This document shows, piece after piece, positions 309-30,817 of a stretch of 33,444 nt of DNA. Positions within the stretch are counted from its first letter, which is position 1, and each line of letters starts with the position of its first letter. A model generated the notes under the pieces. That model saw only the letters and a program-made list of their open reading frames with translations. It was not told where the DNA came from and searched no databases. Source of the stretch: Betaproteobacteria bacterium (GTDB taxonomy: Bacteria; Pseudomonadota; Gammaproteobacteria; Burkholderiales; Ga0077523); contig JAYTTO010000186.1 in NCBI GenBank assembly GCA_043744975.1, forward strand, positions 1 through 33,444. Reading direction: 5' to 3'. A program made the position numbers and the translations under genes.

Positions 309-325
309 CTGACGTTTTCTGTCAG
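309..325. promoter_or_regulatory. palindrome, candidate sigma54-activator (PilR-like) enhancer
   Basis: CTGAC-N7-GTCAG perfect dyad about 215 bp upstream of the sigma54 site; overlaps the HD-GYP stop codon. Confidence 0.35.
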
Positions 326-1986
326 TCGCCGGAATACCCCGGAATTCTCGTCACATCCACCGCGTCGATCTGCTCCGGATCGAGGAACTGTTCGGCATAT
401 CGGAGGTAGACGCGCTGACTCACGAAGATGTCGAAGAGGTCGGGGTCGACGTGGCCGTTGAGCCGAAACTTGCCGAGGATATGGAGCGATTCGGTGAGCG
501 TCTTGCCCTTCTTGTACGGGCGGTCCTTGGCGGTCAGCGCCTCGAAGATGTCGGCGATGCCCATCACCCGCGCCTGGACCGACATCTGGTCGCGCGTGAG
601 TCCGCGCGGATAGCCCTTGCCGTCCATGCGCTCGTGATGGCCGCCGGCGAACTCGGGGACATGACGCAGGTGGCGCGGCCAGGGCAATGCTTCGAGCATC
701 TTGATCGTGACGTCTATGTGGTGGTTGATGATCTGCCGTTCGCCGCTGGTGAGCGTGCCGGCCCGGATGGTGAGGTTCTCGATCTCCTCCGCGGAGAAGA
801 AGTCGACATCCATTCCATCGACATTCCGCCACCGATACTTGAATGAAATCTGGTGGATGCGATCCTGGTCCTCCGGCGACATCGCCTCCGATCCGATATT
901 GCAGTGCCGCACGAAGTCCCGATCGGCATCGATCTCTTCCCCGCGTCGGCGCAGCGATTCGGCAAGCATCGCGGTCTCGGCCCCCGGCTGCCTGATCCCG
1001 GCGAGCCGACGCAGTTGCTCGATCTCGACATCGCGGCGCAGGACCTCGAACCGGGTGTCGATCAGGTGGATGCGGTCGGTGATCGTCTGCAGCTTGGTCG
1101 CCTTGTCGACCACATGGACCGGCGTGGTGACCTTGCCGCAATCGTGCAGCAGGCCGGCGATCTTGAGCTCATAGCGCTCGTTGTCGGTCATGGTCCAGTC
1201 CGCGAGCGGTCCGGACCGGTTCTGGTCGACGGCTTCGGCCAGCAGCATGGTCAGCACCGGCACCCGGTTGCAGTGGCCGCCGGTATAGGGCGACTTGTCG
1301 TCGATGGCCTGGTTGATCAGGTTCACGAACGACTCGAACAGATGCTCGAGCTGCAGGATGAGCAGGCGATTGGTCAGCGCCACGGCGGCCTGCGAAGCGA
1401 GCGACTCGGCCAGGCGCTGGTCGGCCTCGCTGAACGCCACGATCTCGCCGCTGTTGCGGTCGGTGCAATTGATCAGTTGAAGAACCCCGATGATCTCGCC
1501 TTCGTGGTTCTTCATCGGCACGGTCAGGAACGACTTCGAGCGGTAGCCGGTGCGGCTGTCGAACGCCTTGGTCCCGGAGAAATCGAAGCCCTCGGCGGTG
1601 TAGGCATCGGCGATGTTTACCGTGCGGTTGCGCAGCACGGCGTAGGCCGCCACCATCGAGGTGTTCTCGCCACCGTCGGCACTGCGCAGCGGGATCGGGC
1701 CGAACGGCACTTTCGCGCCGGTGGTACCACCCATCGCGATGCCGAGCGACGCAGTCCGGATGATCTCGAAATGCAGCTCGTCCAGGTTTTCGGGATAGCG
1801 GCGGTAGAGCGTCCCGCCGTCCGCGTTGGTGATCTTCTTGGCCGCCACCAGGATGGCCTCGAGCAGGCGGTCGAGGTCCTTTTCCTTGGACAGGGCAATG
1901 CCGACCTCGTTGAGTTCCTCGAGGCGGCGGAACAGATCCGCCGCTGGCGCCGACGTACGGGGCGCAGCCGCTTCGAGCGTGGTCAT
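322..1986 (-). CDS. GAF domain + HD-GYP cyclic dinucleotide phosphodiesterase
   Basis: GAF motif FDSRTGYRSKSFLTVPM...GVLQLIN; YTGGHCNRV, LLHDCGKV, HHERMDGKGYPRGL, DIFEALTAKDRPYK. Confidence 0.92.
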   Translation of the reverse strand: MTTLEAAAPRTSAPAADLFRRLEELNEVGIALSKEKDLDRLLEAILVAAKKITNADGGTLYRRYPENLDELHFEIIRTASLGIAMGGTTGAKVPFGPIPLRSADGGENTSMVAAYAVLRNRTVNIADAYTAEGFDFSGTKAFDSRTGYRSKSFLTVPMKNHEGEIIGVLQLINCTDRNSGEIVAFSEADQRLAESLASQAAVALTNRLLILQLEHLFESFVNLINQAIDDKSPYTGGHCNRVPVLTMLLAEAVDQNRSGPLADWTMTDNERYELKIAGLLHDCGKVTTPVHVVDKATKLQTITDRIHLIDTRFEVLRRDVEIEQLRRLAGIRQPGAETAMLAESLRRRGEEIDADRDFVRHCNIGSEAMSPEDQDRIHQISFKYRWRNVDGMDVDFFSAEEIENLTIRAGTLTSGERQIINHHIDVTIKMLEALPWPRHLRHVPEFAGGHHERMDGKGYPRGLTRDQMSVQARVMGIADIFEALTAKDRPYKKGKTLTESLHILGKFRLNGHVDPDLFDIFVSQRVYLRYAEQFLDPEQIDAVDVTRIPGYSGD

Positions 1987-2017
1987 CAGGCCGGAATCGG
2001 ACTGGAGGGGAGGCCGT

Positions 2018-4405
2018 TCACTTGATGCAGACGGCGCGGACCTGCTTCATGTCGGTGACGCCCTGGAGCACCTTCTCGATGCCGTCCTGCTTGAGGGTGC
2101 GCATGCCCTCGGCCAGGGCGGTCGCGACGATCTCGGCCACCCGGGCGTGCTCCTGGATATGCTTCTTGACCATGTCGGAGCCGACCAGCAGCTCGTGCAG
2201 GCCGACCCGGCCCTTGTAGCCGGTGCCGCTGCAGACCTCGCAGCCGACCGGCGAATTCACGGTGATCTGACCGTTCTCGTTGCCGAAGGTCTGCACCCAC
2301 TCGCGGTACACCGCTTCGTAGGCCGCCTTGGGGTCCTTCTTCCATTGCTCGGTGTTGCGCAGCTCCGAGCAGTACTCATCAAGCATGCCCTTCAACTCCT
2401 CTTTGCTGGGAACGTGCGGCGTCTTGCACTTTGCGCACAGCCGCTTGGCCAGGCGCTGGGCCAGCACGCCGAGCAGCGCGTCGGCGAAGTTGAACGGGTC
2501 CATGCCCATGTCGAGCAGGCGGATGACGGATTCCGGCGCGCTGTTGGTGTGCAGGGTGGCGAACACCAGGTGGCCGGTGAGGGAGGCCTCGATGCCGATG
2601 GCGGTGGTCTCCTTGTCGCGCATTTCGCCGACCATGATGATGTCCGGGTCGGCCCGGAGAAACGCCCGCATGGCCGTGGCGAAGTTGAGCCCGGCCTTGG
2701 GGTTCATCTGGACCTGACGCAGGCCTTTCTGGGTGATTTCGACCGGGTCCTCCGCGGTCCAGATCTTGGTTTCCGGGGTGTTGAGGTAGCCCAACACCGA
2801 GTGCAGCGTTGTGGTCTTGCCGGAACCGGTCGGGCCGCAGACGAAGAACAGGCCGTAGGGCTTGGTGACGGTGTCCTTGACGTTCTTGAAGTTGCGCGCC
2901 GACAGGCCCAGCTTCTCGAGCGGGATCGGCTCGCCTGCTGCCAGGATCCGCATCACGATGTCCTCGACGCCGCCGGCCGAGGGAACGGTAGCCACCCGCA
3001 GCTCGATGTCGAGCGGGCCGAACTTGCGGAACTTGATCTTGCCGTCCTGCGGCTTGCGCTTCTCCGAGATGTCGAGATCGCACATGATCTTCAGGCGCGC
3101 GATCAGGGCATTGCGGTACGACGCCGGCACCGAGATGTAGTGCACCAGCGTACCGTCCTTGCGGAACCGCACCTCGGTCTTGGCCTTGCCCGGGAACGGC
3201 TCGATGTGGATGTCGGAGGCGCCCTGGTGGTAGGCGTCGACGATGATCTTGTTGACCAGCTTGACCAACTCGTTGTCCTGCGCCAGCGAGACGTCGTCGG
3301 TGGAAGCGGCGCCACTCTCGTCGGTCTCGTCGTCGAGCTTGCCGAGCAGCTCGCCGATGTCGGCGCCGTCCATCTCGACGCCGTTGCCGCCGAAGAACTG
3401 GTCGAGCGTCGCGCGGAACTCGCGCAGCATGCAGACCCGGTAGCTCACCTTCGAGCGCGGGAATACGTTCGAGACCACCCGCGAGGCACGCAGCCGCTCC
3501 GGGTCGGTAGTGACCACCACGATGCCGTCCTTGTTCTCTTCCAGCGGCACCCAGCCGTTGCTTTCGACGAACTCGCGCTTCAGGTTCTTCAGCAGATCCA
3601 TCGGCTTGATGCGGTCGAGCTTGAGCGGCTCGTAGGGCACGCCGAAGAACCCTGAAAGCGCATCGCCGATCGCTTGCGGCTTGACCTGGAATTCGTCGGT
3701 GAGGACTTCCTCGATGTCGAGGCCTTTGCGGCGCGCCGACCGCGTCGCCAGCTCCATCTCCTCGCCGGACAGGACCGCATTGGCGACCAGCCCGTCGTAC
3801 TTGCCCTTGACGGCGTTCGGCGCCCGCTGCCGCTGCTTGAGCGCGATCGACAGCGTCTCGCACAGATGCGTGACGCCCTCTTCGGCCAGGGTGCCGAAAG
3901 CCTCGTCCGAATGATTGTTGATGATCTGGATGACACCGACCAGTTCGCCGGATCCGACCTCGTTCACCGGCGCGACCAGCATCTGCTTGGTGCGGTAACC
4001 GGTGCGCTTGTCGACTTCTTTGAGGAAGCGCAGCTGCGGGCTCAGGCGCTTCAACTCGGCCTCGTCGTAGACGTCGCGGATGTTGACGAGCTTGCGGGTG
4101 AACGCCACATAGCCCGCGATCGACTGCTCGTTCAGCGGCAGCTTGAGATCCTTGAACGAGGCGAGGCCGGTCTTGACCTTCGAGACAATCGACTGCTTGT
4201 CCTCGGCCAGCGCGTAGATGGTGAGCCGGTCGGCGTCGAACAGCGAGCAGATGTCCTGCGACAGTTCGAGCATGAGTTCATCGATGTTGGCCGTCGCGTG
4301 GATCTTGTTCGTGACCGCCTGCAGCTTGCGCTGGAATTCCAGCCGGCTGCTCATCTCGGCCAGGTTCTGGCTCGACTGGTGCTTTGCTTCGATCACGGAA
4401 CTCAT
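2018..4405 (-). CDS. GAF-fused PilB/GspE-family secretion/pilus ATPase
   Basis: N-terminal GAF (VDKRTGYRTKQMLVAPV); ASDIHIEP, Walker A GPTGSGKTT, Asp box EDPVE, Walker B DPDIIMVGEMRD, His box TGHLVFATLH, Zn cysteines CAKC...CEVC. Confidence 0.93.
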   Translation of the reverse strand: MSSVIEAKHQSSQNLAEMSSRLEFQRKLQAVTNKIHATANIDELMLELSQDICSLFDADRLTIYALAEDKQSIVSKVKTGLASFKDLKLPLNEQSIAGYVAFTRKLVNIRDVYDEAELKRLSPQLRFLKEVDKRTGYRTKQMLVAPVNEVGSGELVGVIQIINNHSDEAFGTLAEEGVTHLCETLSIALKQRQRAPNAVKGKYDGLVANAVLSGEEMELATRSARRKGLDIEEVLTDEFQVKPQAIGDALSGFFGVPYEPLKLDRIKPMDLLKNLKREFVESNGWVPLEENKDGIVVVTTDPERLRASRVVSNVFPRSKVSYRVCMLREFRATLDQFFGGNGVEMDGADIGELLGKLDDETDESGAASTDDVSLAQDNELVKLVNKIIVDAYHQGASDIHIEPFPGKAKTEVRFRKDGTLVHYISVPASYRNALIARLKIMCDLDISEKRKPQDGKIKFRKFGPLDIELRVATVPSAGGVEDIVMRILAAGEPIPLEKLGLSARNFKNVKDTVTKPYGLFFVCGPTGSGKTTTLHSVLGYLNTPETKIWTAEDPVEITQKGLRQVQMNPKAGLNFATAMRAFLRADPDIIMVGEMRDKETTAIGIEASLTGHLVFATLHTNSAPESVIRLLDMGMDPFNFADALLGVLAQRLAKRLCAKCKTPHVPSKEELKGMLDEYCSELRNTEQWKKDPKAAYEAVYREWVQTFGNENGQITVNSPVGCEVCSGTGYKGRVGLHELLVGSDMVKKHIQEHARVAEIVATALAEGMRTLKQDGIEKVLQGVTDMKQVRAVCIK

Positions 4406-4428
4406 GGCTTCATCCTCGGCGTAAACCC

Positions 4429-4452
4429 GGCTGCCGGACTACCCCGGCAGCC
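4429..4452. other. GC-rich hairpin in the leader of the GAF-ATPase gene
   Basis: ggctgccgg (4429-4437) pairs perfectly with ccggcagcc (4444-4452); no U-tract. Confidence 0.35.
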
Positions 4453-4533
4453 CTTGCCATCGCCGCGTCGCAGCTCTGGCCACATGATTCTAATCCCCGT
4501 CGATCCCGCCCATGCTTCCAATAGAAGGGAGTT

Positions 4534-5298
4534 TCAGAACTTGAACACGTGACCGTTGGCGAGCATGCGGGGATTGAACTGTCCGGCGCACTCTTCGACC
4601 TCGGCCATGGTGAGGGCGCCTTCGCCCGGCTTGAGATGGGTCACGAACACCCGTACCCGCCGCTCCAGCTTGGCCAGTTCGGCCGCCAAGCCGTCCGGCC
4701 AGAGGTGCTTGGACACCAGGGCCAACTCGCGTTCGGCATTGCTGAAAGCCGTCTCGATGATGAGAAAGCGCAGATTGTCGATCTTGTTGACCACGGTCCA
4801 GAGTTCATCGCAGGTGCAGGTATCACCGGTGAACACCAGGCTCGCATCGCCGCTGTCGAGCTGGTAGCCGTTGGCCGGCACCGTATGGCTGGCGGGCAGC
4901 GCGGTGATGCGGCGCCCGCCGAGATCGATGGTTTCTCCCAGCGCCATGGGTTCGAAGCGCAGAAACGGTTCGTTCTCGTTGGGGATCTGGGAGAAATCGG
5001 GCCAGATCTGCCAGTTGAAGATGTGGGCCCGGATGATGGCCAGGGTCGCGGCGGTGGAATGCACCACGATCGGCCGGTTGCGCATGCCGCCCACGGTATC
5101 GACCAGGAACGGCAGCATGGCCAGGTGGTCGAGGTGGCTGTGGGTCAGGAACACGTGATCGATAAGCTGCAGTTCCGCCAGCGTGAGGTCGCCGACGCCG
5201 GTGCCGGCGTCGATGAGCACGTCCTGGTCGAGCAGCATCGAGGTGGTCCGCAGATTGCCCCCGATGCCCCCGCTGCATCCCAACACCCGTATGAGCAT
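4534..5298 (-). CDS. metallo-beta-lactamase-fold 3',5'-cyclic nucleotide phosphodiesterase (class II, CpdP-like)
   Basis: MLIRVLGCSGGIGG start, IDAGTG, THSHLDHL, FTGDT. Start moved to ATG 5298, 2 nt after the cyclase stop. Confidence 0.85.
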   Translation of the reverse strand: MLIRVLGCSGGIGGNLRTTSMLLDQDVLIDAGTGVGDLTLAELQLIDHVFLTHSHLDHLAMLPFLVDTVGGMRNRPIVVHSTAATLAIIRAHIFNWQIWPDFSQIPNENEPFLRFEPMALGETIDLGGRRITALPASHTVPANGYQLDSGDASLVFTGDTCTCDELWTVVNKIDNLRFLIIETAFSNAERELALVSKHLWPDGLAAELAKLERRVRVFVTHLKPGEGALTMAEVEECAGQFNPRMLANGHVFKF

Positions 5299-5300
5299 GG

Positions 5301-7529
5301 CTATTTGCTGTCGAAGTCGTAGACACCGTCCCAGCCGGGCTGCGGCGGGGACGAGCGGAAGTACGCGATGCGCTCCTGGTACGCGCTGTATAGCTTCACG
5401 CCGGGCTCCATGCGCTGCAGGTTGAGCAGCTGCAGCTCGGCCTTGTCCCAATCCTGCGCGCGGTAGAACTTGAGCACTTGCTGGAACAGCTTCAACCGGT
5501 CATGAACATCCTTGCCGACCGCCGACTGCAGACCGATCGGTTCGAAGATCGCGACCGGCGCGTCCTTGCCCTTGACCCGCACGCGGTCGAGTTCGCGGAA
5601 CACGACCTCCGGCACGGCGGACTTGGTGCTTTCGGCGACGATCATGGTCACGCCATAGCGCTTGGTGATGCTCTCCAGCCGCGAGGCGAGATTCACCGCA
5701 TCGCCCATGACAGTGTAGGCCATGCGCAGCTCCGAACCCATGTTGCCGACATTCATGCGCCCACTGTTGACGCCGACGCCGATCTTGAGCGGTGGCCAGC
5801 CCCGGGCCACGAACTCTGGTTCGAGCGCCGCCAATCTGGTCTGCATCTCGAGGCCGGCCAGCACCGCGTGGCGTGCGTGATCGGGGTCGTCGATCGGGGC
5901 GCCCCAGAAGGCCATGATCGCATCGCCCATGTACTTGTCGACCGTACCGCGCTTGCCGTAGATGACCCGCGTCATCGGCGTCAGGTAGGCGTTCATCAGC
6001 TGCGACAGTGCCTTCGGTTCCAGACCTTCCGATATCGTCGTGAAGCTGCGGACATCGGAGAACAGGACCGAGAGTTCGCGGCTCTCGCCTTCCAGCGAAT
6101 ACTGGTCCGGGTTGCGGCTCATCTCCTCGGCGATCTCGGGCGGCACGTACTGGCCGAAGCGATCGGTGATCTTGCGCTTCGCCCGCGACTCGACGAAGTA
6201 GCCGTAGGACATGTTGAGGGCCCACAGGACGGCTGTCAGCAACAGGCCCGACGCCAGCGGCAGCACCAGGTTGCCATTGCTCCACACTGCCAGGTTGAGC
6301 GCGAACACCGCACCAAGCAGGGCGATGGTGGCAACGGTGGCGCGTATCGGCGACAGAAACGGCAACCCGATTGCAAGCGCCAGCCCGATCAGGCTGAGCA
6401 GTACCACTTCGGCGCCCAGCACGTAGGGCGGCTTCTGCTTGATATTGCCGTCGAGCATGCCCACGATCAGGTTGGCGTGGATCTCGACCCCGGGGTAGAG
6501 CGGCGCCACCGGGGTGGACCGCAAGTCCTGCAGCCCCGGGGCGGTGGTGCCGACCAGCACGACGCGGTCCTTGAGGATCTCCGGGGCGACGCGGTCGCGC
6601 AACACGTCGGTGGCCGACACGTATGGGAAGCTGCGCTCCGGACCGCGATACGGCACCAGGGCACGGACCTGCTCGTCGACCGGGACGCGCAGGGGGCCGA
6701 TTTCGAGCCATTCCAGGCCGGGATACCCCTTGGTGAAGACGCTATCGGTCGGATAGCCCGGCTTGACCTGAGGTGACTGCAGCAGCAGCCGCGTCACCGC
6801 CAGCGCCAGCGGTTCGTAGTAGGCCCCCTTGTACTCCGCCAGCATCGGGACGCTGCGATGGACGCCGTCGACATCGGTCGCCGGGGTGAAGTGACCGCCG
6901 CCGGCCGCCGCCGCCTGGAGCTCTGCCAGGTTGCCTCCATAGCCCGGGAAGGTGGTGAACTTGATGCTGCGGCCGCCGAAGGTGCCGGCCGGCAGGACCG
7001 GCTTCGGGATCGCGCCGATCGCCACGCCTTCGGTACCCTGGGGCGCGAGGTTGGTGAAGTAGAAACCGAGGATGACCGGCCGCCCCTTGAGTTGCTCGGC
7101 GAGCAGCCGGTCGTACTCCAGCTTCGGCGCAATGGCATCGAGGGCGGCATGAAACTGGGCATCGGCCCGCAGTTCGCCCTGTTCGAGCCCACGCAGGATG
7201 CCGAGACCCGAGCTCTCGTCGCGTTCGGCGAACACGACGTCGAAACCGAGCACGCTGATGTGGTATTTGTCGAAGAGCTTGCCCACCAGGTCGGCGATGC
7301 GATCCCGGCGCCACGGCCAGCGACCCTCCTCCGCCAAGCTCTTCTCGTCGATGTCGACGATGACCACGCGCGGGTCGACGGTGCGCGGCATGGTGAGCAG
7401 CAGCCGCGCGTCGTAGGCAAAGGCTTCGAGCCGCTCGATGAAGCCGAAGCGCGCAATGCCGGCGGCGTGCACCAGGAAGAAGGCGACGACGGCGAGGCCG
7501 AGGACGATGCGCGCAGCGTGTTTCTTCAA
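5301..7529 (-). CDS. CHASE2-domain class III adenylate cyclase with TPR-like C-terminal tail
   Basis: CHASE2 (IDEKSL...WPWRR, PGVEIHA), 3 TM helices, LFSDVRSFTTISE, DKYMGDAIMAFWGAP, YTVMGDAVNLASRLE; TTG start. Confidence 0.92.
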   Translation of the reverse strand: MKKHAARIVLGLAVVAFFLVHAAGIARFGFIERLEAFAYDARLLLTMPRTVDPRVVIVDIDEKSLAEEGRWPWRRDRIADLVGKLFDKYHISVLGFDVVFAERDESSGLGILRGLEQGELRADAQFHAALDAIAPKLEYDRLLAEQLKGRPVILGFYFTNLAPQGTEGVAIGAIPKPVLPAGTFGGRSIKFTTFPGYGGNLAELQAAAAGGGHFTPATDVDGVHRSVPMLAEYKGAYYEPLALAVTRLLLQSPQVKPGYPTDSVFTKGYPGLEWLEIGPLRVPVDEQVRALVPYRGPERSFPYVSATDVLRDRVAPEILKDRVVLVGTTAPGLQDLRSTPVAPLYPGVEIHANLIVGMLDGNIKQKPPYVLGAEVVLLSLIGLALAIGLPFLSPIRATVATIALLGAVFALNLAVWSNGNLVLPLASGLLLTAVLWALNMSYGYFVESRAKRKITDRFGQYVPPEIAEEMSRNPDQYSLEGESRELSVLFSDVRSFTTISEGLEPKALSQLMNAYLTPMTRVIYGKRGTVDKYMGDAIMAFWGAPIDDPDHARHAVLAGLEMQTRLAALEPEFVARGWPPLKIGVGVNSGRMNVGNMGSELRMAYTVMGDAVNLASRLESITKRYGVTMIVAESTKSAVPEVVFRELDRVRVKGKDAPVAIFEPIGLQSAVGKDVHDRLKLFQQVLKFYRAQDWDKAELQLLNLQRMEPGVKLYSAYQERIAYFRSSPPQPGWDGVYDFDSK

Positions 7530-7614
7530 GTAGCCCCCGTATCAGTCTCGATGCGCCGCTGCCGACGAACCCGGGCTTAAGGCGGGGGCTGTCGCGGTCG
7601 GCTTGCCCGGGAAC

Positions 7615-8403
7615 TCAGGCTGCCGGCCTGAAGAAGAACTCCATCTTCACCCCGGCGAGTTCGATCACGTCGTGATCCCTCAACTGGTGGGCCTGGCCGT
7701 CGAGCGACTGGCCGTTGAGGATCGGCATCGTGGTGCCTTCGACGTGGGTGATGAAGTAGCCTTGGGGCCGTTTGGCGATGACCGCGACCTGGACGCCGGG
7801 CTTGCCGAGGGTCGTCAGGGACTTCACGAGCGGCAGTTCCTTGCCGGCATTGGGGCCGGACAGGATCTGGATGACCCCTTGAGGTCCGGCCTGAACCGGC
7901 GGAGCCGACGGCGGCGGGGGGGGCGGGGGCATGCTTGCGCCCGCCATGTTGCGCCCCGCGTTGATCTGGGTGTCGGTGAGACGGGCGGCGGGCGGGAGGG
8001 TTCCGTTCCCGACGGCCGTGGTGGTGTCGCCAGTACGGGTCTCCGCGGCCGGGGCGCGCGGCGGCGCCCGCAGCACCATGGTCTTTTCGAAGTCGGCGGC
8101 CGTCGTGCCAGAGGATGATTCGTTGGCGTAGCGCAGCTTGTACTTGCCGATCTCGACCGTGTCGCCGTTCTGCAGGAAGTGCTTCTTGACCGGTTGTCCG
8201 TTGACCAGCGTCCCGTTGGTGCTGCCCAGATCCTCGAGGAACGAGTCGTTCAGGATGGTCACGATGGCGGCATGCTCGCCGCTGACCGCAAGGTTCTCGA
8301 TCGGGATGTCGTTGTGGGCCTTGCGGCCGATCGTGGTGCGCTCCTTGGTCAGCGTGTATTCCTTCAGCACCACACCGTCGAGCGTGAGAGTCAGCTTAGC
8401 CAT
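7615..8403 (-). CDS. FHA-domain protein (canonical N-terminal FHA, Pro-rich linker, degenerate C-terminal FHA)
   Basis: IGRKAHNDI...VSGEHA...DLGSTNGT; the second domain retains ILNG...LRDHDVIELAG but has LGK and no SxxH. Confidence 0.9.
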   Translation of the reverse strand: MAKLTLTLDGVVLKEYTLTKERTTIGRKAHNDIPIENLAVSGEHAAIVTILNDSFLEDLGSTNGTLVNGQPVKKHFLQNGDTVEIGKYKLRYANESSSGTTAADFEKTMVLRAPPRAPAAETRTGDTTTAVGNGTLPPAARLTDTQINAGRNMAGASMPPPPPPPSAPPVQAGPQGVIQILSGPNAGKELPLVKSLTTLGKPGVQVAVIAKRPQGYFITHVEGTTMPILNGQSLDGQAHQLRDHDVIELAGVKMEFFFRPAA

Positions 8404-8419
8404 AGCACCATCCCTGTAT

Positions 8420-9244
8420 TTACTTGAACCACGACAGGACCTTGCCGAGCCAGGTCTCCGCCGCCGGAAAGTCGCGAGTCACTTTCACCAGAATGACGGA
8501 CACGTTGTCGCGCCCGCCGTTGTCGTTCGCCATCTGCACGAGTTGGTTCGCGGCCAGCGGCAGGTTCGCGCCCATGGCGTTCAGGGTGAGTTCGATGTCC
8601 TCATCCTCGACCATGTCGTTCAACCCGTCCGAGCAGAGCAGGTAGAGGTCGCCCGGCCTGGCGTCGTAGGTATGGATCTCCGCCTCCACTTCGGCCTCGA
8701 TGCCGAGCGCGCGGGTGACCAGGTTCTTGTTCTGCGACCGCCGCGCCGCCTCGCGGGTGATCATGCCGGCATCGATCTGCTCCTGCAGCAGGCTGTGGTC
8801 GCGTGTGATCTGCTCGAGGCGCTCGTCGCGCAGACGGTAAAGGCGCGAATCGCCGATGTGCGCCACCGACAGGCGGTTGTCGCGGAACAGGGTGACCACC
8901 AGCGTCGTGCCCATGCCGGCGTACTGCGGTTGGCTGTTCGCGGACTGATAGATCGACGTGTTGGCCTTGGCGGTGATGCCCTTCAGCAGGCGGATCGCCT
9001 GCAGGTCACCCTCGGCCTGTTCGAGCCCGTGCAGGTTGGTGCGGGCGATCGCCTGGCGCATCTCCGAGGTGATGAGCGCGACGGCGATGCCGCTGGCGAC
9101 CTCGCCCGCGTTGTAGCCGCCCATCCCGTCGGCGAGGACGGCGAGGCCGATCTCGCCGTCGGTAGCGCACGCGTCCTCGTTGTGGGAGCGGACCATGCCG
9201 GTGTGGGTGGCGGTCGAGATTTCCAGGGCCTTGACCAGGTTCAT
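8420..9244 (-). CDS. PP2C/PPM-family Ser/Thr phosphatase (Stp1-like)
   Basis: GMVRSHNED, LADGMGG, MGTT, HIGDSRLY, LCSDGL, GGRDNVS. Confidence 0.95.
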   Translation of the reverse strand: MNLVKALEISTATHTGMVRSHNEDACATDGEIGLAVLADGMGGYNAGEVASGIAVALITSEMRQAIARTNLHGLEQAEGDLQAIRLLKGITAKANTSIYQSANSQPQYAGMGTTLVVTLFRDNRLSVAHIGDSRLYRLRDERLEQITRDHSLLQEQIDAGMITREAARRSQNKNLVTRALGIEAEVEAEIHTYDARPGDLYLLCSDGLNDMVEDEDIELTLNAMGANLPLAANQLVQMANDNGGRDNVSVILVKVTRDFPAAETWLGKVLSWFK

Positions 9245-9247
9245 GGG

Positions 9248-11788
9248 TTACAGGCTGACGTCAATGGTTGAGGACAATTGTGCCGCGCATTCGCGGATCG
9301 CCGCCGCCATTTCCTCGCCGCTACGGAAACGGTCGTCGACGTTCTTCGCCAGCGCACGGGCGATGATGCCGACCAGGCAAGGCGGCAGATCCGGGTTGAC
9401 GCTGAGGATATCGATCGGCGGTTCGTTGGCGATCTTGTACATGAGCTGGGTCATGGTCTCGCCCTGGAACGGCAGGCTGCCGCAGGCCAGCTGATAGAGC
9501 GTGACGCCGAGCGAGAACAGGTCGGACGGGCCGTCGATCTTGCGCCCGGCGAGTTGCTCCGGCGACATGAACGACGGTGTACCCAGAACCATGCCCGTCT
9601 TGGTCTTGGACGAGTCGGTGATGCGGGCGATGCCGAAGTCGGTGACCTTGACCGAGTCGCTGTCCGGGTCGTACATGATGTTCGCCGGCTTGATGTCGCG
9701 ATGCACGACGTTCTGCGCGTGCGCGTACGAAAGCGCGTCGGCCACGCGCGCGGCGATGCTCATGGTCCGGGCGAGCGGCAGCAGCTTGTCGGCCTTGACG
9801 TAGGGCACCAGGTCCTTGCCCTTGAGGAACTCCATCGCGATGTAGGCAAGGTCGTGTTCCTCGCCGGCATCGAAGATCGTCACGATGTTGGGATGATTCA
9901 GGCGCCCGGCCGTCTCCGCCTCGCGGAAGAAGCGCTGCTTGACTTCCTCGAGTTCGTCGGCCTCAAACTCCTGCGACAGCGCCATGGTCTTGATCGCCAC
10001 CACCCGGCCGATCTTCGGATCCTTGCCCAGGTAGACCACGCCCATGGCGCCCTTGCCGAGTTCCTTCTCGACCTGATAGCGCCCCAGCATCGGCTTCTCG
10101 ACCGTCCCGCCCTCGAGGATCATGGTCGACGCGTTGGCCCGGCCGCCGCCGCCGAGGATGACCGTTTCCGACATCTGCTTGGCGCGCGACAGCTTCTGCC
10201 CGAGGTCGCGGAACTTCGGATTGTGGCCGCCCATGTATTCGTACACGGACTGCGCCTTGTTGAACTGGCGCTTGCGTTCGAAATCGAGCGCCAGGTTGTA
10301 GAGGTTGTCCATCAACCCGTCGTTGAGCGGGCACTTGCGGAACTTGTCGAAGGCCATGTCGAGCTGGCCCTGACCCTGAAACGCGAGGCCGAGCATGCGG
10401 TTCGATTCCGCCGACTCGAGATCGGACTGGAGTTTGCCGCGTTCGGTGACCAGGAAGCGCTTGGTGGTCAGCGCCAGATGCCCGATGACCAGCAGGACCA
10501 CGGGCGCCATCAGCGGGATCCAGAGCAACTGCGTGGTCATCAACGCGAAGTGGGCGCCGATCAGCGCAATCGCGAGGGCGATGGTGATGATGGCCGCGGG
10601 GCCCGCCTTCAGCCGCGGCAGCAGCGCGGCGAGATAAGCCGCGATGAGGAGCAGCGCGGCGAACGACACGTACGGCGCCCAGATCGGCTGCACGAAGAAA
10701 TCTTCCTGCAGGATGCTCGAGACGGAGTGCGCGAGGATCAGCACCGGCGACATCGCAGCCGCGATCGGGGTCACAGTGGTGGTGCCGAGGCCCGCGGCGG
10801 TCGGCCCGATCAGGACGATCTTGTCGCGATACTTGTCGGCCGGGATCTTGCCGCTCAGGACGTCGTAGAACGAATCCACCTGGAACGCGGGCTTCGCTTC
10901 GCGATCACGGTAGAAATAGGTAAGCATCTGCAGGCTCGAATCGGTCCGGATCGACAGCTTGCCGAGCTTCACGCCCTCGCCGAACTTGACGGTCACGTCC
11001 TTGGTCTGGAGGTTCAGGCTGCGCGCCGCGATCATCAGCGACAACGACGGAAACATCATGTCGTAGTAGCGGACCACGAGCGGCTCGGACCGGACGCCGC
11101 CGTCGATGTCGATACCGGTGTTGAGGTGTCCGATACCGCTCGCCACGTCGCCGAGGGCCGGGATCGGCATCACGGGATTCAGCACCGAGGTCGGCAGCTC
11201 CGCGCCGGCCGTCGTCGCGGCGAGCGGGAGGACGCTGTTCTTCACATAGGGCGGCAGTTCCCCGTCCGGATTGCCGATCGGTTCGCGGTCGAACTGCTGG
11301 AACACCATCGCCAGCACCACGTTCTTGGCTGCGCCGATGCTGGCGGCGAGCTTGCGGTCGGTATTGAGGCTCTGCTCGGCTTCGCCGAGGGTGACCTCCA
11401 TTTCCGGAAGCTCCTGCTGGGCCGCCGGCGGTGCGGCCTGGAACTGCCCGATCAGCTTGGTGATGTAGATGAGGCCGGGATCGACCTGTGGCTCGGCGAA
11501 GAACACCGTGCTGGCGACGATCCGGGCCTTGGCCTGCGTCAGCAGGTCGATCATCTTGGCGTGGACATCGCGCGGCCAGGGCCAGCGGCCGATGTTGCCG
11601 ATGCTCTGGTCGTCGATGGCGATCACCGCGACACGGTCGCTGGGCGTCTCGCTCGTGGCGCGGACGCCCATGTCGTACGCGACGCGCTCGATGCCCTGGA
11701 TGGCCGACCCGTGCGACGCGATCAACACCGCAAGAGCGATCACGACTGCGACGAACCAGTCCGCCTTCCAGAATCCGAGTTTGCCCAT
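9248..11788 (-). CDS. CHASE2-domain Hanks-type Ser/Thr protein kinase
   Basis: CHASE2 (IDDQSI...WPWPR), 3 TM helices, TPR-like helices, GKGAMGVVY, VAIK, HRDIKPAN, DFG, GTPSFMSPE. Confidence 0.95.
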   Translation of the reverse strand: MGKLGFWKADWFVAVVIALAVLIASHGSAIQGIERVAYDMGVRATSETPSDRVAVIAIDDQSIGNIGRWPWPRDVHAKMIDLLTQAKARIVASTVFFAEPQVDPGLIYITKLIGQFQAAPPAAQQELPEMEVTLGEAEQSLNTDRKLAASIGAAKNVVLAMVFQQFDREPIGNPDGELPPYVKNSVLPLAATTAGAELPTSVLNPVMPIPALGDVASGIGHLNTGIDIDGGVRSEPLVVRYYDMMFPSLSLMIAARSLNLQTKDVTVKFGEGVKLGKLSIRTDSSLQMLTYFYRDREAKPAFQVDSFYDVLSGKIPADKYRDKIVLIGPTAAGLGTTTVTPIAAAMSPVLILAHSVSSILQEDFFVQPIWAPYVSFAALLLIAAYLAALLPRLKAGPAAIITIALAIALIGAHFALMTTQLLWIPLMAPVVLLVIGHLALTTKRFLVTERGKLQSDLESAESNRMLGLAFQGQGQLDMAFDKFRKCPLNDGLMDNLYNLALDFERKRQFNKAQSVYEYMGGHNPKFRDLGQKLSRAKQMSETVILGGGGRANASTMILEGGTVEKPMLGRYQVEKELGKGAMGVVYLGKDPKIGRVVAIKTMALSQEFEADELEEVKQRFFREAETAGRLNHPNIVTIFDAGEEHDLAYIAMEFLKGKDLVPYVKADKLLPLARTMSIAARVADALSYAHAQNVVHRDIKPANIMYDPDSDSVKVTDFGIARITDSSKTKTGMVLGTPSFMSPEQLAGRKIDGPSDLFSLGVTLYQLACGSLPFQGETMTQLMYKIANEPPIDILSVNPDLPPCLVGIIARALAKNVDDRFRSGEEMAAAIRECAAQLSSTIDVSL

Positions 11789-11899: not shown

Positions 11900-11929
11900 A
11901 TATTAGACATGGTACGACATTAGAGTCAA
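11900..11929 (-). promoter_or_regulatory. candidate sigma70 promoter for the kinase-led cluster
   Basis: TTGACT followed by TCTAAT (16-nt spacer) or TAATAT (18-nt spacer) in an AT-rich intergenic region. Confidence 0.45.
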
Positions 11930-22240: not shown

Positions 22241-23278
22241 ATGCCATTTCAGGTAACGCTGCAGAAGACCGGTCACCGCTTCGCCGTGCCGGATGGTCAA
22301 TCGGTTCTCGCCGCCGCGAGCGCTGCCGGCTATACCCTCGCCTACGGCTGCCGCGGCGGTTCCTGCGGCGCCTGCAAGGGCAAGCTGATCGAGGGGACGG
22401 TCGATTACGGCGCACATATGCCCTACACGCTCTCGGAGATCGAGAAGAAGGCCGGCTTCGCGCTGTTCTGCACCGCCAAGCCGCTCTCCGACCTGGTGAT
22501 CGACGCGCGCGAGATCGGCGGCATGGGGGGCATCGAGGTCAAGAAGCTGCCGGTCCGGATCCTGTCGATCGACAAGCCGGCGCCGGATGTCGCCGTGCTC
22601 AGGTTGAAGCTGCCCGCCAATATCGAATGGAAGTTCCTCGCCGGCCAGTACGTCGAGTTCCTGCTGCGCGACAACCGGCGCCGCGCGTATTCGATGGCGA
22701 ATGCGCCGCACGTCGTCGAGCACCTGGAACTGCATGTCCGCCACATGCCAGGGGGCGTGTTCACCGATCCGGTGTTCACCACCATGAAAGAGAAGGACAT
22801 CCTGCGCCTGGAGGGTCCGATGGGGACCTTCTTCCTGCGCGAGGATTCGGACAAACCGATCGTGTTCGTCGCCAGCGGCACCGGCTTCGCGCCGATCAAG
22901 GCGATCATCGAGCACATGCTGCACGTGGGCATCGTCCGGCCGATGGTGCTGTACTGGGGCGGACGCCGGCCGGCCGACCTCTACATGAACGCCTTGTGCC
23001 GGCAATGGGAGGCCGGGCATGGCTGGTTCACGTACGTACCGGTGGTGTCGGACGCGACTGCCGATGACGCGTGGACGGGCCGGACCGGATTCGTGCATCG
23101 CGCCGTGATGGCGGATTTCCCCGACCTGTCGGGTCACCAGGTCTATGCGTGCGGCGCCCCCGTCGTCGTCGATTCCGCCAAGAGCGATTTGGTCGAACAG
23201 TGCGGCCTTCCCGCCGAGGAATTTTTCGCCGACTCGTTCACCCCGTCCGTGGACGTTCCCGCCACCAGCCCAACCTGA
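22241..23278 (+). CDS. 2Fe-2S/FAD/NAD(P)H reductase (CDP-6-deoxy-delta-3,4-glucoseen reductase family)
   Basis: CRGGSCGAC...C ferredoxin motif, RAYSMAN, GPMGTF, ASGTGFAPI, YACGAP; purine-rich RBS before ATG 22241. Confidence 0.9.
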   Translation: MPFQVTLQKTGHRFAVPDGQSVLAAASAAGYTLAYGCRGGSCGACKGKLIEGTVDYGAHMPYTLSEIEKKAGFALFCTAKPLSDLVIDAREIGGMGGIEVKKLPVRILSIDKPAPDVAVLRLKLPANIEWKFLAGQYVEFLLRDNRRRAYSMANAPHVVEHLELHVRHMPGGVFTDPVFTTMKEKDILRLEGPMGTFFLREDSDKPIVFVASGTGFAPIKAIIEHMLHVGIVRPMVLYWGGRRPADLYMNALCRQWEAGHGWFTYVPVVSDATADDAWTGRTGFVHRAVMADFPDLSGHQVYACGAPVVVDSAKSDLVEQCGLPAEEFFADSFTPSVDVPATSPT

Positions 23279-23280
23279 CT

Positions 23281-23363
23281 CGGGCCGCCCCAAGCAAGCT
23301 GGCCCCCCATTGGGGGGTGCCGACCGCAGGAAGGCTGGGGGGGTTCAGCTTGCGCCGGGCCGC
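23281..23363 (+). repeat. REP-like repeat, one full unit plus the start of a second
   Basis: cgggccgccccaagcaagctggccccccattggggggtgccgaccgcaggaaggctgggggggttcagcttgcgccgggccgc; near-identical to the reverse complement of the 33.1-kb copy. Confidence 0.92.
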
Positions 23364-24093
23364 GATGCCGTTGATGGTGAGGAGGATGGCGCGCTTGACC
23401 TGGTCATCGGTCTCGCCGCCGCGCCAGCACGTGAGCAGTTTCACCTGCAGGTGGTTGAACGGGTCGAGGTACGGCGACCGGTTGCGGAAACTGCGGGCGA
23501 GCGTCGGACTGCGGTCGAGCAGTTCCTTGTGGCCGGTGATGGCAAGCCGGGCATCGACGGTGCGTTGTCATTCGGACTGGAGCCGGGCGAAGACGGCGCG
23601 CCGGTTGTCCTCGTCGCCCACCAGTTCGGCATAGCGCGACGCGATCGACATGTCGCTCTTGCCGAGCACCATGTCCAGGTTCGACAGCAGGGCCCGGGTC
23701 TGCCACAGCGTGAGCACCAGGCGCCGCAGTCCGTCCTCTTTCTCGGCCAGTTCCTCGGGCGTAAGCTGCTGAGGCGAGCGATCGGTGAGCAGGCGCGCGA
23801 TCTCAAGCTGGGTATCGAGGATGCTCTTGCGCTGCACTTCGGTCGGATGCGCGGTCAGCACCGGGGAGACGGTCGCGGTCTCGAAGAAGCGGACGATGTC
23901 CGATCCGGGAATGCCGACCTCGAGCGCGCGGTCAAGCGTCAGCGACAGAGCACCTTCCTCGGAACCGGCGTCGGCGAACTGGCGCGAGTGATACCGGCGG
24001 TTGATGTTCTGGTCCTCGGCAATGTTGACCAGCAGCGAGAAGTAGCTGAATGCCCGGCTCGACGGCTGCGGAGTTGGCGCTGTTCACGTTCAT
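23358..24093 (-). pseudogene. ppc: phosphoenolpyruvate carboxylase remnant
   Basis: One frame reads RAFSYFSLLVNIAED...VLTAHPTEVQRKSIL...LWQTR|ALLSNLDMVLGKSD...SE*...RSPYLDPFNHLQV...LLTINGIAA. Large internal deletion, TGA at 23568-23570, out-of-frame ATG at 24093 and missing C-terminus. Confidence 0.92.
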
Positions 24094-26456: not shown

Positions 26457-27325
26457 GCCGGATTCCCCTGCGTCGCCACGCTGGCAAAATGATCGACCAT
26501 CCCGGCGATGGTTGCGCGGTCGCCGCTGCCACAGACGCGAGCGCACCCGAAGCCCAGCGACCGTGCGGTACCCGCGATGCGTTCGTGGGCAACGAACACC
26601 GGCGTGCGACGCAGCACCTCGCGCGCAGGCTCGCCAACCATCTGGAACAGGTTCAGCAGCGCTTCGCCACTGGCGGCCGTCACGGCGGCGATGTCGCCCG
26701 CGGCGAGCCGGCGCTCGAGGTGAGCCGGATCCGAGGCCGGACGCTCGCGTCGATAGCACGGCACCGTGACGACGGTCGCGCCGCGGCCGGCGAGCGCGTC
26801 GGCGAGCAGGCGTCGCCCGCCCTCGCCCGTAAAGATGACGATGCGACGTCCCGCCACCGCCGCCAGTTCCGGATGCTCCAGCAGCGACTCGGTGTCGGCC
26901 CCCGTTGGCGGAATCACGACGTTCGTGACGCCAAATGAGACCAGTGCCGCCGCGGTGCCTTCCCCTATTGCCGCCGCCCCCGCGTCCGGCGGCAGGCCGC
27001 CGGCGGCGAGCAGCGCCGGCAGCGTCAACGTCACTGCATTGGCGCTGGTAAAGATCGCCAGCCCGATTCCGTCGCGGGCGGCGACCGCCTGGGCAAGCGG
27101 GCGGGGATCGGTCGCCGGCAAGATGTCGATGGTCGGGAACAGGACCGCTTCACCCCCATCCCTGGCGATGAGGTCCGCGAGAGCCGCCGACTGATGGGCC
27201 GGGCGGGTCACGAGGATCGCGCGGCCCGCCAGGCAGGCGCTCGCACGGGAAATGGATCCGTCCCCTGCGCCGAGCGCCTTCCCGCCGAGCGGGAACCCGC
27301 CCCCCGGGAGGGCCGCCGGACTCAT
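26453..27325 (-). CDS. hemD: uroporphyrinogen-III synthase
   Basis: [30 protein letters not shown]...GA...CYRR; ATGA overlaps with hemC and hemX. Confidence 0.93.
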
Positions 27326-28293
27326 TGGCTACGGTCGAGCGCGCGCAGGATATCGAGCGCGCCGGCCCCGGCAAGCTGGACCGCCACCGCCTCGCCGAGC
27401 AGGTGGGCGGTTCCCTGGACATGGGGCGCATCGGCGACGGCGCGCACCACCTTGCTGCCGTCCGGACTGGCCACCAGCCCCCGGAGCGTTGCCCGCCCGT
27501 CGGCGATCTGCGCGAAGCCACCCAACGGCATGGTGCAACTGCCGCCGAGTCGGCGGCTCAGGGCGCGCTCGGCCAAGACGCACCAGGCTGTGTCGGCGTG
27601 GTTGAGCGACTGGAGCAGCGCGATCAGCCCGGGGCGGTCGCCGCGGCACTCGATGCCGATCGCGCCTTGCCCGACCGCGGGCAGGCTGTCTTCCGGCGCC
27701 AGCCACGCCCGGATCCGGTCGCCCAGACCAAGCCGGCGCAGGCCTGCGGCCGCCAGGATGATGGCGTCGTACTCGCCCTCGTCGAGCTTGCGCAGGCGGG
27801 TTTGCACATTGCCTCGCAGCGGTTCGATCCGCAGCGCCGGGAACCGTGCGCGCAATTGACTCTCGCGACGCAGGCTCGATGTCCCCACGACGGCGCCGGG
27901 CGGCAACTCATCGAGGGACCGGTAGCGCGCCGAGACCAGGGCGTCGCGGGGGTCTTCGCGTTCGCCGATGGCCGCGATCACGAAGCCCGGCGGCAGATTG
28001 ACCGGCACGTCCTTCATGGAATGCACGGCGATGTCCGCGCGACCATCGAGCAGGGCGTCTTCGAGTTCCTTCACGAACAAGCCCTTGCCGCCGATCTTCG
28101 CGAGCGACGAGCCCAACTGGCGGTCGCCTTCGGTGGTCATCCCGAGCAGCGACACCTCGAGCCCGGGGTGCGCCGCCGTCAGCAGCGCGCGGACATGCCC
28201 GGCCTGCCACAGGGCCAGCGCGCTTTCGCGGGTGGCGATGACCAGACGGGTGAGAGGCTTGGCGGACTCGGACACGGGGGCGAGAGAGGGCAA
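27322..28293 (-). CDS. hemC: hydroxymethylbilane synthase (porphobilinogen deaminase)
   Basis: [44 protein letters not shown]. Start is TTG 28293 or GTG 28275. Confidence 0.97.
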
Positions 28294-28339: not shown

Positions 28340-28861
28340 TCAGAGATCGCGCGACCCGTTGGAACGTTGCCGGGCCCGTGTGGCCTCGAACCCCGCGAAC
28401 GCCGACGGCGTCATGCAGGACACCACCGAACGGCTGATGCGCCCCGCGAACTGCTCGGCGACCACGACCGCTCCGTCGATCCGCCAGACCCATACCGCGT
28501 TGTCGAACAGCCCGCCCATGCCACCCCGCAACGGCTCCCCGTGGTCCTCGGGCTCGCCAAGTACGATGCGCAGACTCGCGGCAACCCGATCGAAAGCAGA
28601 TTCGCCGAACTGCACCTGCGCCGCAACGATCGCGCCGTTGTCGAGTTCGGCATCGGCGATCTCCACCGCCGCGCCGTGGAACCGGTGGGCGGTACCGGAC
28701 CGGAGGCGGCACACCCCGGTCGAGGCGTCCGGGTCGCAGCGATAGGCCTCCAGGCCACGATCCACAAGGCAGCCATCGTGGAGCCGCTGTCCGGGCGGGT
28801 TGGCCATCGCGACCGAGGTCACGCAAAGACAGATGGCCGCAACGGATCCGGCCGGCGTCAT
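28340..28861 (-). CDS. hypothetical exported protein
   Basis: 173 aa; ATG overlaps the algR stop (ATGA); signal-peptide-like N-terminus ending VAMA; several Cys. No family recognised. Confidence 0.55.
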   Translation of the reverse strand: MTPAGSVAAICLCVTSVAMANPPGQRLHDGCLVDRGLEAYRCDPDASTGVCRLRSGTAHRFHGAAVEIADAELDNGAIVAAQVQFGESAFDRVAASLRIVLGEPEDHGEPLRGGMGGLFDNAVWVWRIDGAVVVAEQFAGRISRSVVSCMTPSAFAGFEATRARQRSNGSRDL

Positions 28862-29631: not shown

Positions 29632-29687
29632 CTGCGAAAATCTCCTCGTCAGCGGCTGGCCGCGTTCGCCTTGCCCTTGCCCAGAGA

Positions 29688-30707: not shown

Positions 30708-30817
30708 CCTTCCGAGAGCCTGACATGGCGCGGCTTTGCGCCGATCGGGCGGCAGGGCCGAGGGCTCGTCCCGTTCGCAGCACATGGTCGCACAGTCCGG
30801 CAAGCCACCAGAACCCC

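Follow-up and report, generated by a model that had tools for sequence, protein, structure and literature searches.

Gene content of the locus

The DNA examined here (the window) is an entire 33,444-bp contig (C186) of a 532-contig Betaproteobacteria metagenome-assembled genome (MAG) that is 82% complete. Seven open reading frames (ORFs), all on the minus strand, occupy positions 322 to 11788 and are separated by intergenic gaps of 3, 16, 85, 2, 128 and 31 bp; third-position GC content is 0.84-0.92 in six of the seven frames. They encode proteins predicted to make, remove and read phosphothreonine and cyclic AMP (cAMP), together with an extension-type ATPase that carries a GAF domain (the GAF-ATPase, or GAF-PilB). 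We read the cluster as a conserved signalling island around the extension ATPase of a type IVa pilus (T4aP) at the pilA locus, in which the GAF-ATPase likely drives an ordinary T4aP and replaces PilB in many lineages; the probability that we attach to this reading is roughly 55%.

Read along the minus strand, the cluster opens with an 846-aa Hanks-type Ser/Thr kinase bearing a CHASE2 sensor (9248-11788; Pfam CHASE2 and Pkinase), followed by a 274-aa PP2C Ser/Thr phosphatase (8420-9244; Pfam PP2C_2/PP2C), a 262-aa FHA protein (7615-8403; Pfam FHA at residues 23-86) and a 742-aa class III adenylyl cyclase that has its own CHASE2 sensor and a TTG start (5301-7529; Pfam CHASE2 and Guanylate_cyc). 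Next comes a 254-aa metallo-β-lactamase (MBL)-fold protein resembling class II cyclic nucleotide phosphodiesterases (4534-5298; Pfam Lactamase_B_2 and PDEase_II), for which the ORF spans 4534-5451 and the ATG at 5298 is the likely true start. The 795-aa GAF-ATPase (2018-4405; Pfam GAF, MshEN and T2SSE) has the arrangement GAF-N1-T2SSE, N1 being the PilB/GspE N-terminal domain, and the last gene encodes a 554-aa GAF-HD-GYP phosphodiesterase (322-1986; Pfam GAF, HD and HD_5).

These coordinates and domain matches bear out much of a first-pass annotation made from the window alone, which had described seven co-oriented genes with gaps of 2-128 bp, a CHASE2 sensor on both writers, GAF domains on a PilB/GspE ATPase and on an HD-GYP enzyme, and two writer-eraser-reader sets (kinase, PP2C and FHA; cyclase, phosphodiesterase and GAF). 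The domain content and logic of the two sets hold, and both GAF domains can be assigned to a cyclic-nucleotide-binding lineage, as set out below.

Conservation of the cluster

In a scan of one genome per species, relatives of the ATPase turned up in 595 stretches, of which the best 80 loci were searched by tblastn with the seven window proteins; these are the closest relatives of the query, so the conservation figures are biased upwards. To count as well flanked, a locus needed at least 8.5 kb on the upstream side of the ATPase match and at least 2 kb on the downstream side; 26 loci fell short and were dropped, and 54 remained. Labels carried by the 80 loci include Gallionella, Sideroxydans, Nitrosomonadales, Rhodocyclaceae, Sulfuricella, Methyloversatilis, Chitinimonas and Pelomicrobium, among others.

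All seven genes were present in 34 of the 54 well-flanked loci, and all 34 were colinear with the window. Identities of the seven proteins across related loci were 55-90%, rising to 85-97% in the closest relative (G345). Given that the flanking genes vary between lineages, the island is sharply bordered. This is not a neighbourhood that arose by chance, and the statement in the first-pass annotation that similar clusters exist elsewhere in Betaproteobacteria proved correct.

The individual genes differ in their constancy. The MBL gene is the most constant neighbour of the ATPase gene (50/54) and the sole cluster gene left beside it in genome G024. It is followed by the HD-GYP gene (49/54) and by the PP2C and FHA genes, each found in 49 loci (FHA at a relaxed coverage threshold) and together in 49; the MBL, ATPase and HD-GYP genes occur jointly in 47. 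Least constant are the two CHASE2 proteins, with the cyclase in 41 loci and the kinase in 38. They occur together in 37 loci, the kinase without the cyclase in one, the cyclase without the kinase in four, and neither in 12. Because both are missing from those 12 loci, and some lineages retain only the MBL and ATPase genes, the cyclase and kinase are accessory rather than obligatory. A 360-aa protein with cNMP_binding and Rhodanese domains, absent from the window, is encoded between the MBL and ATPase genes in 27 of the 80 loci. At two loci labelled Methylotenera / Methylophilaceae (L043 and L049), the GAF-ATPase gene stands alone: the 10 kb to each side of it contain no other gene of the seven.

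Association with a type IVa pilin gene

Clustering of the ORFs from the 80 loci revealed proteins of ∼150 aa with a type IVa prepilin N terminus encoded directly after HD-GYP (50 ORFs in 40 loci). In a motif search of the 57 loci that have the HD-GYP gene and at least 1.5 kb of sequence beyond it, 37 had a pilin N-terminal motif no more than 4 kb downstream of HD-GYP, and in 35 of these it was on the same strand. Genes often found after the pilin encode O-antigen-ligase-like (Wzy_C) or tetratricopeptide repeat (TPR)-glycosyltransferase proteins. In the closest relative (locus L118), the pilin ORF begins 316 bp after HD-GYP, and the left end of the window aligns to this locus through the first 8 nt of that ORF. 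Positions 1-8 of the window (minus strand) are thus the start of a type IVa pilin gene, ATGAAGCG (M-K-R), which lies 313 bp from the HD-GYP gene and is cut by the contig end, and the company of a pilin, which the first-pass annotation had proposed to look for, is apparent both here and across the family.

Upstream of the pilin start, at 81-95 on the minus strand, lies TGGCATAACGCTTGC, the single sigma-54-type match in the window against 0.11 expected, as scored with a consensus pattern that did not come from a tool. Given this element, the pilin gene is probably transcribed from a promoter of its own.

A full type IVa pilin is encoded elsewhere in the source genome (contig C6:175-597, locus L093). 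It is 68% identical to the pilin of a relative, shares its first 8 nt with that of the window and is followed by large TPR/glycosyltransferase-like ORFs. This gene was considered as the direct continuation of the window and rejected, since the upstream sequence differs; it probably represents another pilin copy in tandem, the repeat having broken the assembly. Two other loci, L007 and L008, have two pilin copies each.

Classification of the GAF-ATPase

The ATPase domain matches Pfam T2SSE with an E-value of 8e-115. The Walker A and B, Asp and His boxes and the tetracysteine motif (GPTGSGKT, DPDIIMVGEMRD, TGHLV..TLHTN and C657/C660/C722/C725) are invariant in 41 ATPase sequences, with an insertion of ∼50 aa separating the two Cys pairs. 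Among solved structures, Thermus PilF and Myxococcus PilB are the best matches, and the N1 region aligns with the N-domains of these proteins. In a 23-row tree of the ATPase domain, the GAF-ATPases form one clade (support 100/100) that is placed, with a long-branch warning, as sister to canonical PilB (93/90), an assignment for which we consider the support to be moderate.

The Pfam MshEN match on the ATPase covers residues 254-340 only, the C-terminal subdomain. Extension ATPases of the T2SSE family, of the MshE/PilB type, are regulated by cyclic di-GMP (c-di-GMP) via MshEN, according to Wang et al. (2016; PMC5013675). The relaxed form of the tandem 24-residue motif given there, RLGxx(L/V/I)(L/V/I)xxG(L/V/I)(L/V/I)xxxxLxxxLxxQ, was matched by 0 of 76 GAF-ATPase family members, and a search of the PDB with the ATPase N-terminal region returned no MshE match even at E <= 10. 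An MshE-like paralogue from a related genome, used as the positive control, does carry the motif in tandem. Binding of c-di-GMP by the ATPase via MshEN was therefore rejected, the motor is unlikely to read c-di-GMP in the known way, and any link between the HD-GYP protein and the motor would not run through an MshEN site. The GAF-ATPase resembles the MshE/PilB-type c-di-GMP ATPases in that its N-terminal region is the candidate receiver of a second messenger, but it is without the tandem motif, and its sensor would instead be an extra GAF domain of the cyclic nucleotide monophosphate (cNMP) type.

The control protein is a 589-aa MshE-like ATPase with a perfect tandem c-di-GMP motif, encoded with an MSHA-like pilin cluster in a Nitrosomonadaceae genome (L090; G004:C1:577000-593000, minus strand). 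In genomes such as this one, c-di-GMP lowered by the GAF-HD-GYP protein could act on a different pilus system.

Platform pairing and distribution relative to PilB

The positions of T2SSE ATPase and T2SSF platform genes were compared in 13 genomes. No platform gene was found beside the GAF-ATPase in any of the 13, nor was a platform, secretin or pseudopilin set belonging to it found in the 80 loci; rather than lying beside pilC or pilD, the GAF-ATPase gene adjoins pilA. In the four PilB-positive genomes (G039, G053, G340 and G370), the top-scoring PilC-like platform was beside PilB in every case. In all nine PilB-negative genomes (G004, G024, G179, G363, G018, G020, G025, G034 and G011), the top PilC-like platform had no adjacent ATPase. 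G024 and G004 have an operon of pilC, a 286-aa gene and coaE, with unrelated genes at the expected place of pilB. In these two genomes no extension-type ATPase other than the GAF-ATPase lacks a platform, and the same is true of G025 except for one weak match.

The source genome conforms to the second arrangement. Its contig C461 carries a CNNM transporter gene, pilC (87% identical to that of G039), pilD and coaE, with no pilB between CNNM and pilC, and PilQ and PilT are present in the genome. G039, a closed genome of the same genus, has CNNM-pilB-pilC-pilD-coaE plus the full seven-gene cluster. Replacement of PilB by the GAF-ATPase in the source genome is apparent rather than proven.

Other ATPases in the source genome comprise a 'TfpB'-type type IV pilus (T4P) ATPase (contig C292), a 750-aa GspE-like ATPase (C185), a GspD-GspE pair (C203) and PilT (C12). 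The C292 protein scores 908 bits against a cut-off of 850 for NCBIfam NF053534, on a contig that, at 1.8 kb, is too short to show neighbours. It was rejected as the canonical PilB of the source genome, being 45% identical to the same-genus PilB and in a separate clade of the tree. In the closed genomes G039 (C1:1333956) and G053 (C1:1049167), members of the 'TfpB' clade have no adjacent platform and co-exist with both PilB and the GAF-ATPase. The C185 ATPase (locus L092, 7529-9781, minus strand) has an N-terminal extension of ∼250 aa without a Pfam domain and lies among secretin-like and prepilin-type genes; in the tree it groups with platform-adjacent GspE-like ATPases.

The distribution of the two motors was assessed in 401 evenly sampled genomes of the order, with the N-terminal 370 residues of the GAF-ATPase (GAF and N1) as one query and the G039 PilB orthologue, at E <= 1e-150, as the other. 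The resulting counts treat related genomes that are not independent and include four genomes flagged unpublished (G210, G299 and G384 with the GAF-ATPase, G031 with PilB). GAF and N1 were found in 193 genomes (161 of 350 of high quality; 71 of 167 genera) and a PilB orthologue in 219; both were present in 84, the GAF-ATPase only in 109, PilB only in 135 and neither in 73. Across families, the GAF-ATPase and canonical PilB are largely complementary. The GAF-ATPase was found without any PilB in f14 and f16 (10/10 genomes each), f21 and f30 (9/9 each), f20 (8/9, with PilB in 0/9) and f7 (6/6), and in f29 it was found in 8/9 with PilB in 1/9. The reverse pattern was seen in f13 (PilB 10/10, GAF-ATPase 0/10) and f2 (3/3 and 0/3, respectively). 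Both proteins occur in families f17, f19, f28 and f1, the last being that of the window. Outside the order, only distant look-alikes of 27-33% identity were found, in 6 of 200 genomes from other families of the class. The earlier description of the GAF-ATPase as an "alternative" motor is probably wrong for this genome, in view of the pilC-pilD-coaE operon without pilB and of this complementarity.

The kinase, phosphatase and FHA proteins

The kinase has Pfam CHASE2 at residues 17-383 and Pkinase at 571-820 (E 7e-55), and its translation contains VAIK, HRD and DFG motifs. The phosphatase belongs to the NCBIfam Stp1/IreP family (247.3 bits, above the cut-off of 230), and the FHA domain retains GR, SxxH and NG. 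Catalytic and phosphothreonine-binding motifs are thus present throughout this triad. A consensus of 43 FHA protein sequences shows an N-terminal FHA domain, a conserved DFEKTMVLR motif, a variable Pro/Ala linker and a conserved C-terminal FHA-like domain.

OdhI and GarA are FHA phospho-switch proteins and, like the protein described here, are small and have a conserved Thr motif next to the FHA domain. Strict conservation of DFEKTMVLR just after the FHA domain, together with the conserved C-terminal FHA-like domain, suggests a self-binding switch of this kind, and we speculate that the Thr of this motif may be its site. The present protein differs in that the motif follows the FHA domain on its C-terminal side and is itself followed by a second, degenerate FHA-like domain, and in that there is no link to 2-oxoglutarate metabolism; its match to the NCBIfam OdhI model, at 56 bits, is below the cut-off of 200. 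A parallel in genetic organization is offered by PpkA/PppA/Fha1, the threonine-phosphorylation switch of the type VI secretion system (T6SS), where genes for a PP2C, an FHA protein and a Hanks kinase of the membrane that has a periplasmic sensor likewise lie together beside a secretion or fibre machine. Here, by contrast, the machine would be a T4P rather than the T6SS and the sensor is CHASE2.

The cyclase and the MBL-fold protein

The best PDB matches of the cyclase are Cya2, Pseudomonas aeruginosa CyaB (3r5g, E 3.8e-36) and Spirulina CyaC. Alignment to these proteins shows that it keeps the metal-binding Asp residues, the transition-state Asn/Arg and the Lys and Thr pair of class IIIb. Its substrate-specifying residues, the Lys of DKYMGD and the Thr of AYTVMGD, are those of CyaB and CyaC; the guanylyl cyclase Cya2 has Glu and Gly there. 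The window cyclase accordingly reads as an adenylyl cyclase, as first annotated.

The Pfam PDEase_II model (PF02112) matches the MBL protein of the window with 33 bits against a cut-off of 23.7, over residues 44-105 and ∼62 of 340 profile positions, and matches 44 of 44 members of the family (best E 5.7e-18). The HxHLDH metal motif (H53, H55, D57 and H58) is invariant. The score against the NCBIfam cyclic nucleotide phosphodiesterase model NF041851, 38.8 bits, is below the cut-off of 400. That this protein is a class II phosphodiesterase is plausible but not settled, the PDEase_II match being short and the nucleases RNase Z and beta-CASP ranking beside yeast PDE1 among its solved relatives.

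The GAF domains and the HD-GYP protein

The GAF domain of the ATPase matches both GAF domains of Anabaena CyaB2 (1ykd) at E 7e-24, as well as those of PDE10A (4.6e-9), PDE2A (1.5e-8) and PDE5. That of the HD-GYP protein matches the GAF domains of PDE5 (7.8e-13) and PDE2. The two cluster domains share a pocket signature, with 35% identity over 89 aa, and the pocket region DxRTGYR...P...GV.Q.IN is nearly invariant across 41-76 homologues. On these profile and motif matches, both GAF domains are assigned to the CyaB2/PDE (PDE2, 5, 6 and 10) cyclic nucleotide subfamily.

The HD-GYP motifs LLHDCGK and HHERMDGKGYP are present and invariant in 41 sequences, and the PDB matches are PmGH (4mcw, E 4e-28) and V-cGAP3 (5z7c). 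PmGH, the c-di-GMP phosphodiesterase of Persephonella marina, has the same GAF and HD-GYP architecture with intact catalytic motifs; we know of no ligand for the GAF domain of this closest solved relative. In the window protein the HD-GYP domain is split by an insertion of ∼100 aa at residues ∼300-405 (Pfam HD 237-306 and HD_5 400-517; a gap relative to PmGH). An insertion of about this type, ∼100 residues, is described for LIC_11189 and linked to REC-GAF-HD-GYP response regulators in a 2026 paper (PMC12943098). Compared with the proteins treated there, the insertion here is similar, but the protein is without a REC (receiver) domain and its gene is fixed beside that of a pilus ATPase. A complex prediction for ATPase residues 1-375 with the HD-GYP protein scored 0.00 and returned no verdict, which is evidence neither way.

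Other features of the window

A sigma-70-like promoter match upstream of the kinase gene (11900-11929, minus strand), at 9 of 12 consensus positions, is weak, since three such sites were found in the region against 1.5 expected. Upstream of the cluster, from position 12000, lie housekeeping genes encoding DUF1330, a GT4 glycosyltransferase, diacylglycerol kinase, peroxiredoxin, DUF3426, accC, accB and aroQ. At 28858-30803 (minus strand), between hemC (27322-28293) and argH (30725-32236), a LytTR response regulator (Response_reg and LytTR) is encoded with a PF06580 histidine kinase. The position of this pair beside hemC corresponds to the synteny of algZ(fimS)-algR-hemC in P. aeruginosa, in which the pair controls minor-pilin genes; a second pilus regulator therefore lies 17 kb from the cluster. 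Two short ORFs that adjoin each other at 23238-24083 (minus strand) align to no more of the 919-position phosphoenolpyruvate carboxylase model than positions 66-189 and 838-913; they represent a ppc remnant that has lost a large internal part, or else an assembly error in the MAG.

Discussion

The second-messenger input known so far for type IV pilus motors is c-di-GMP, which acts through MshEN or through PilZ/FimX adaptors, and cAMP is known to act on pili through transcription by Vfr/CRP. In P. aeruginosa, cAMP acts on pili transcriptionally through Vfr, and CyaB has a MASE2 sensor. The cluster resembles the Pil-Chp/CyaB/Vfr system of that organism in linking a class IIIb adenylyl cyclase, with a catalytic domain close to that of CyaB, to a T4aP. 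It differs in its CHASE2 sensor, in having no chp genes, and in that the candidate receptors of cAMP are not Vfr but GAF domains on the motor and on the HD-GYP protein. Xanthomonas offers a second comparison, in that RpfG-PilZ-PilT/PilU connects an HD-GYP protein and PilZ to pilus ATPases. A FimX-PilZ-PilB link is also described in Xanthomonas (PMC10333796). There, as here, an HD-GYP protein or c-di-GMP pathway is tied to T4P motors that do not themselves bind c-di-GMP, but the present cluster has no PilZ or FimX, the input domain of its HD-GYP protein is GAF instead of REC, and the HD-GYP gene directly follows that of the motor (49/54). A full-text literature search found neither a GAF-bearing PilB nor this cluster, in keeping with the first-pass annotation, which knew of no functional characterisation; most subscription journals and supplements lay outside its reach, among them the MshEN architecture tables of PMC5013675, which might list such a protein.

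A mechanism consistent with the domain content can be outlined. The GAF-ATPase would be a PilB-type motor for a T4aP machine encoded elsewhere (PilC-PilD, PilQ and PilT), taking the place of canonical PilB in the source genome and in about half of the carriers. The picture with the best support is one in which a T4aP motor moved to the pilin locus, gained a cyclic nucleotide GAF domain and displaced PilB in many lineages, a variable signalling island gathering around it. The two paralogous CHASE2 domains would sense an envelope or periplasmic cue, the CHASE2 cyclase would make cAMP, and the adjacent MBL, class II-like phosphodiesterase would remove it. Binding of cAMP to the GAF domain of the ATPase may set motor activity or assembly and thereby pilus extension, and binding to the GAF domain of the HD-GYP protein may couple cAMP to the breakdown of c-di-GMP (or cyclic GMP-AMP). 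In the other branch, phosphothreonine would be written by the CHASE2 kinase, erased by PP2C and read by the FHA protein, and the target of this branch may be the motor. Direct gating of the motor by cAMP, the identity of the ligand, the direction of regulation, the kinase substrate and co-transcription of the genes are all points that we infer. In its fullest form, this scheme holds that in many Betaproteobacteria (Gallionellaceae, Nitrosomonadales, Rhodocyclaceae and others) the T4aP has lost PilB and runs on a GAF-PilB switched directly by cAMP from the CHASE2 cyclase/MBL pair, with cAMP also driving the GAF-HD-GYP protein and the kinase/PP2C/FHA branch acting as a second, independent gate on the motor. 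We put this full form forward tentatively, judging the odds to be somewhat against it.

Several observations count against the reading of the cluster as a T4aP motor island in which PilB has been replaced. The ATPase falls below the NCBIfam cut-offs for both PilB (TIGR02538; 491.3 bits against 675.65) and GspE (448.1 against 630.25), and an approximately unbiased test did not reject the grouping of its clade with the GspE-like clade instead (p 0.106). The calls of PilB as absent rest on an arbitrary E-value cut-off. In the source genome, pilB could lie on a missing contig, as only 82% of the genome is present, and the C292 'TfpB' ATPase could serve PilC. An unpaired ATPase of ∼600-680 aa, assigned to the 'TfpB' clade by the tree, is also found in the six PilB-negative genomes other than G004, G024 and G025. 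The 'TfpB' ATPase and the incompleteness of the source genome would suit an accessory or alternative motor that works beside PilB, or that powers another fibre, secretion or DNA uptake, with the cluster modulating this side function. Further support for that account comes from the presence of a PilB orthologue in 84 of the 193 genomes with the GAF-ATPase, including 7 of 9 other sampled genomes of the genus of the window, and from the complete genome G039, in which the pilBCD-coaE operon and the seven-gene cluster co-exist. It is opposed by the absence of pilB from its conserved place between CNNM and pilC in the source genome, by the closest relative, G345, which is 95% complete and likewise has no PilB match, and by G004 and G024, which have no other candidate ATPase for their orphan PilC. 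That the GAF-ATPase adjoins a major-pilin-type gene and has no platform, secretin or pseudopilin set of its own also speaks for the ordinary T4aP, and we consider the accessory or alternative motor unlikely. Less probable by far is that the seven genes form an incidental row of common signalling genes without a shared function. Each domain type is indeed common in Betaproteobacteria, and the predicted ATPase/HD-GYP complex gave no verdict; such a row would hardly keep its order and content in 34 of 54 loci across Gallionellaceae, Rhodocyclaceae, Nitrosomonadales, Chitinimonas and others, at protein identities of 55-90%, while the flanks differ.

A separate question is whether the module is real but its GAF domains are not cAMP receptors, binding another ligand or serving in dimerisation only, with the cyclase and phosphodiesterase acting through CRP-type regulators or the cNMP_binding-rhodanese protein, as in the transcriptional control of pili by cAMP. 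GAF domains accept a wide range of ligands, and that of the ATPase could bind cGMP, another molecule or none. The lack of a known GAF ligand for PmGH, the separate cNMP-binding protein inside the cluster in 27 of 80 loci, the sigma-54-like promoter of the pilin gene and the 12 loci without a cyclase (which have no CHASE2 protein at all) all fit such a scheme. The ambiguity of the MBL protein, whose profile matches RNase Z (3.5e-10) and Cas14 (3.2e-9) in the PDB as well as yeast PDE1 (4.6e-9), counts against our main reading. So does the presence in the source genome of four other class III cyclase matches outside the cluster, which, with the absence of a diguanylate cyclase, platform gene and secretin from the cluster, makes the term "self-contained" used in the first-pass annotation too strong. 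What argues for cyclic nucleotide reception by the motor is the CyaB2/PDE subfamily assignment of both GAF domains, with a pocket nearly conserved to invariance across the homologues, and the constancy of the phosphodiesterase-like MBL gene beside the ATPase gene, retained in G024 where the rest of the cluster is gone. On balance, a role for these GAF domains apart from cAMP seems improbable to us.

A PilB-type motor with its own cyclic nucleotide GAF domain would be a different control point from those outlined above, namely one that is post-translational, fast and local. The cluster represents a natural case in which three signalling currencies (cAMP, phosphothreonine and c-di-GMP) would be wired to one machine. 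The comparative pattern lends itself to testing in lineages that have the GAF-ATPase as the only candidate motor, lineages with both motors and lineages with the MBL and ATPase genes only. Among the carriers are environmentally important iron oxidisers, nitrifiers and wastewater Rhodocyclaceae, which need pili for attachment, twitching, DNA uptake and aggregation. If the proposed mechanism is true, the motor of these organisms would be the first of any pilus to have a cAMP receptor built in, and the cluster would be a hard-wired node of cAMP/c-di-GMP cross-talk.

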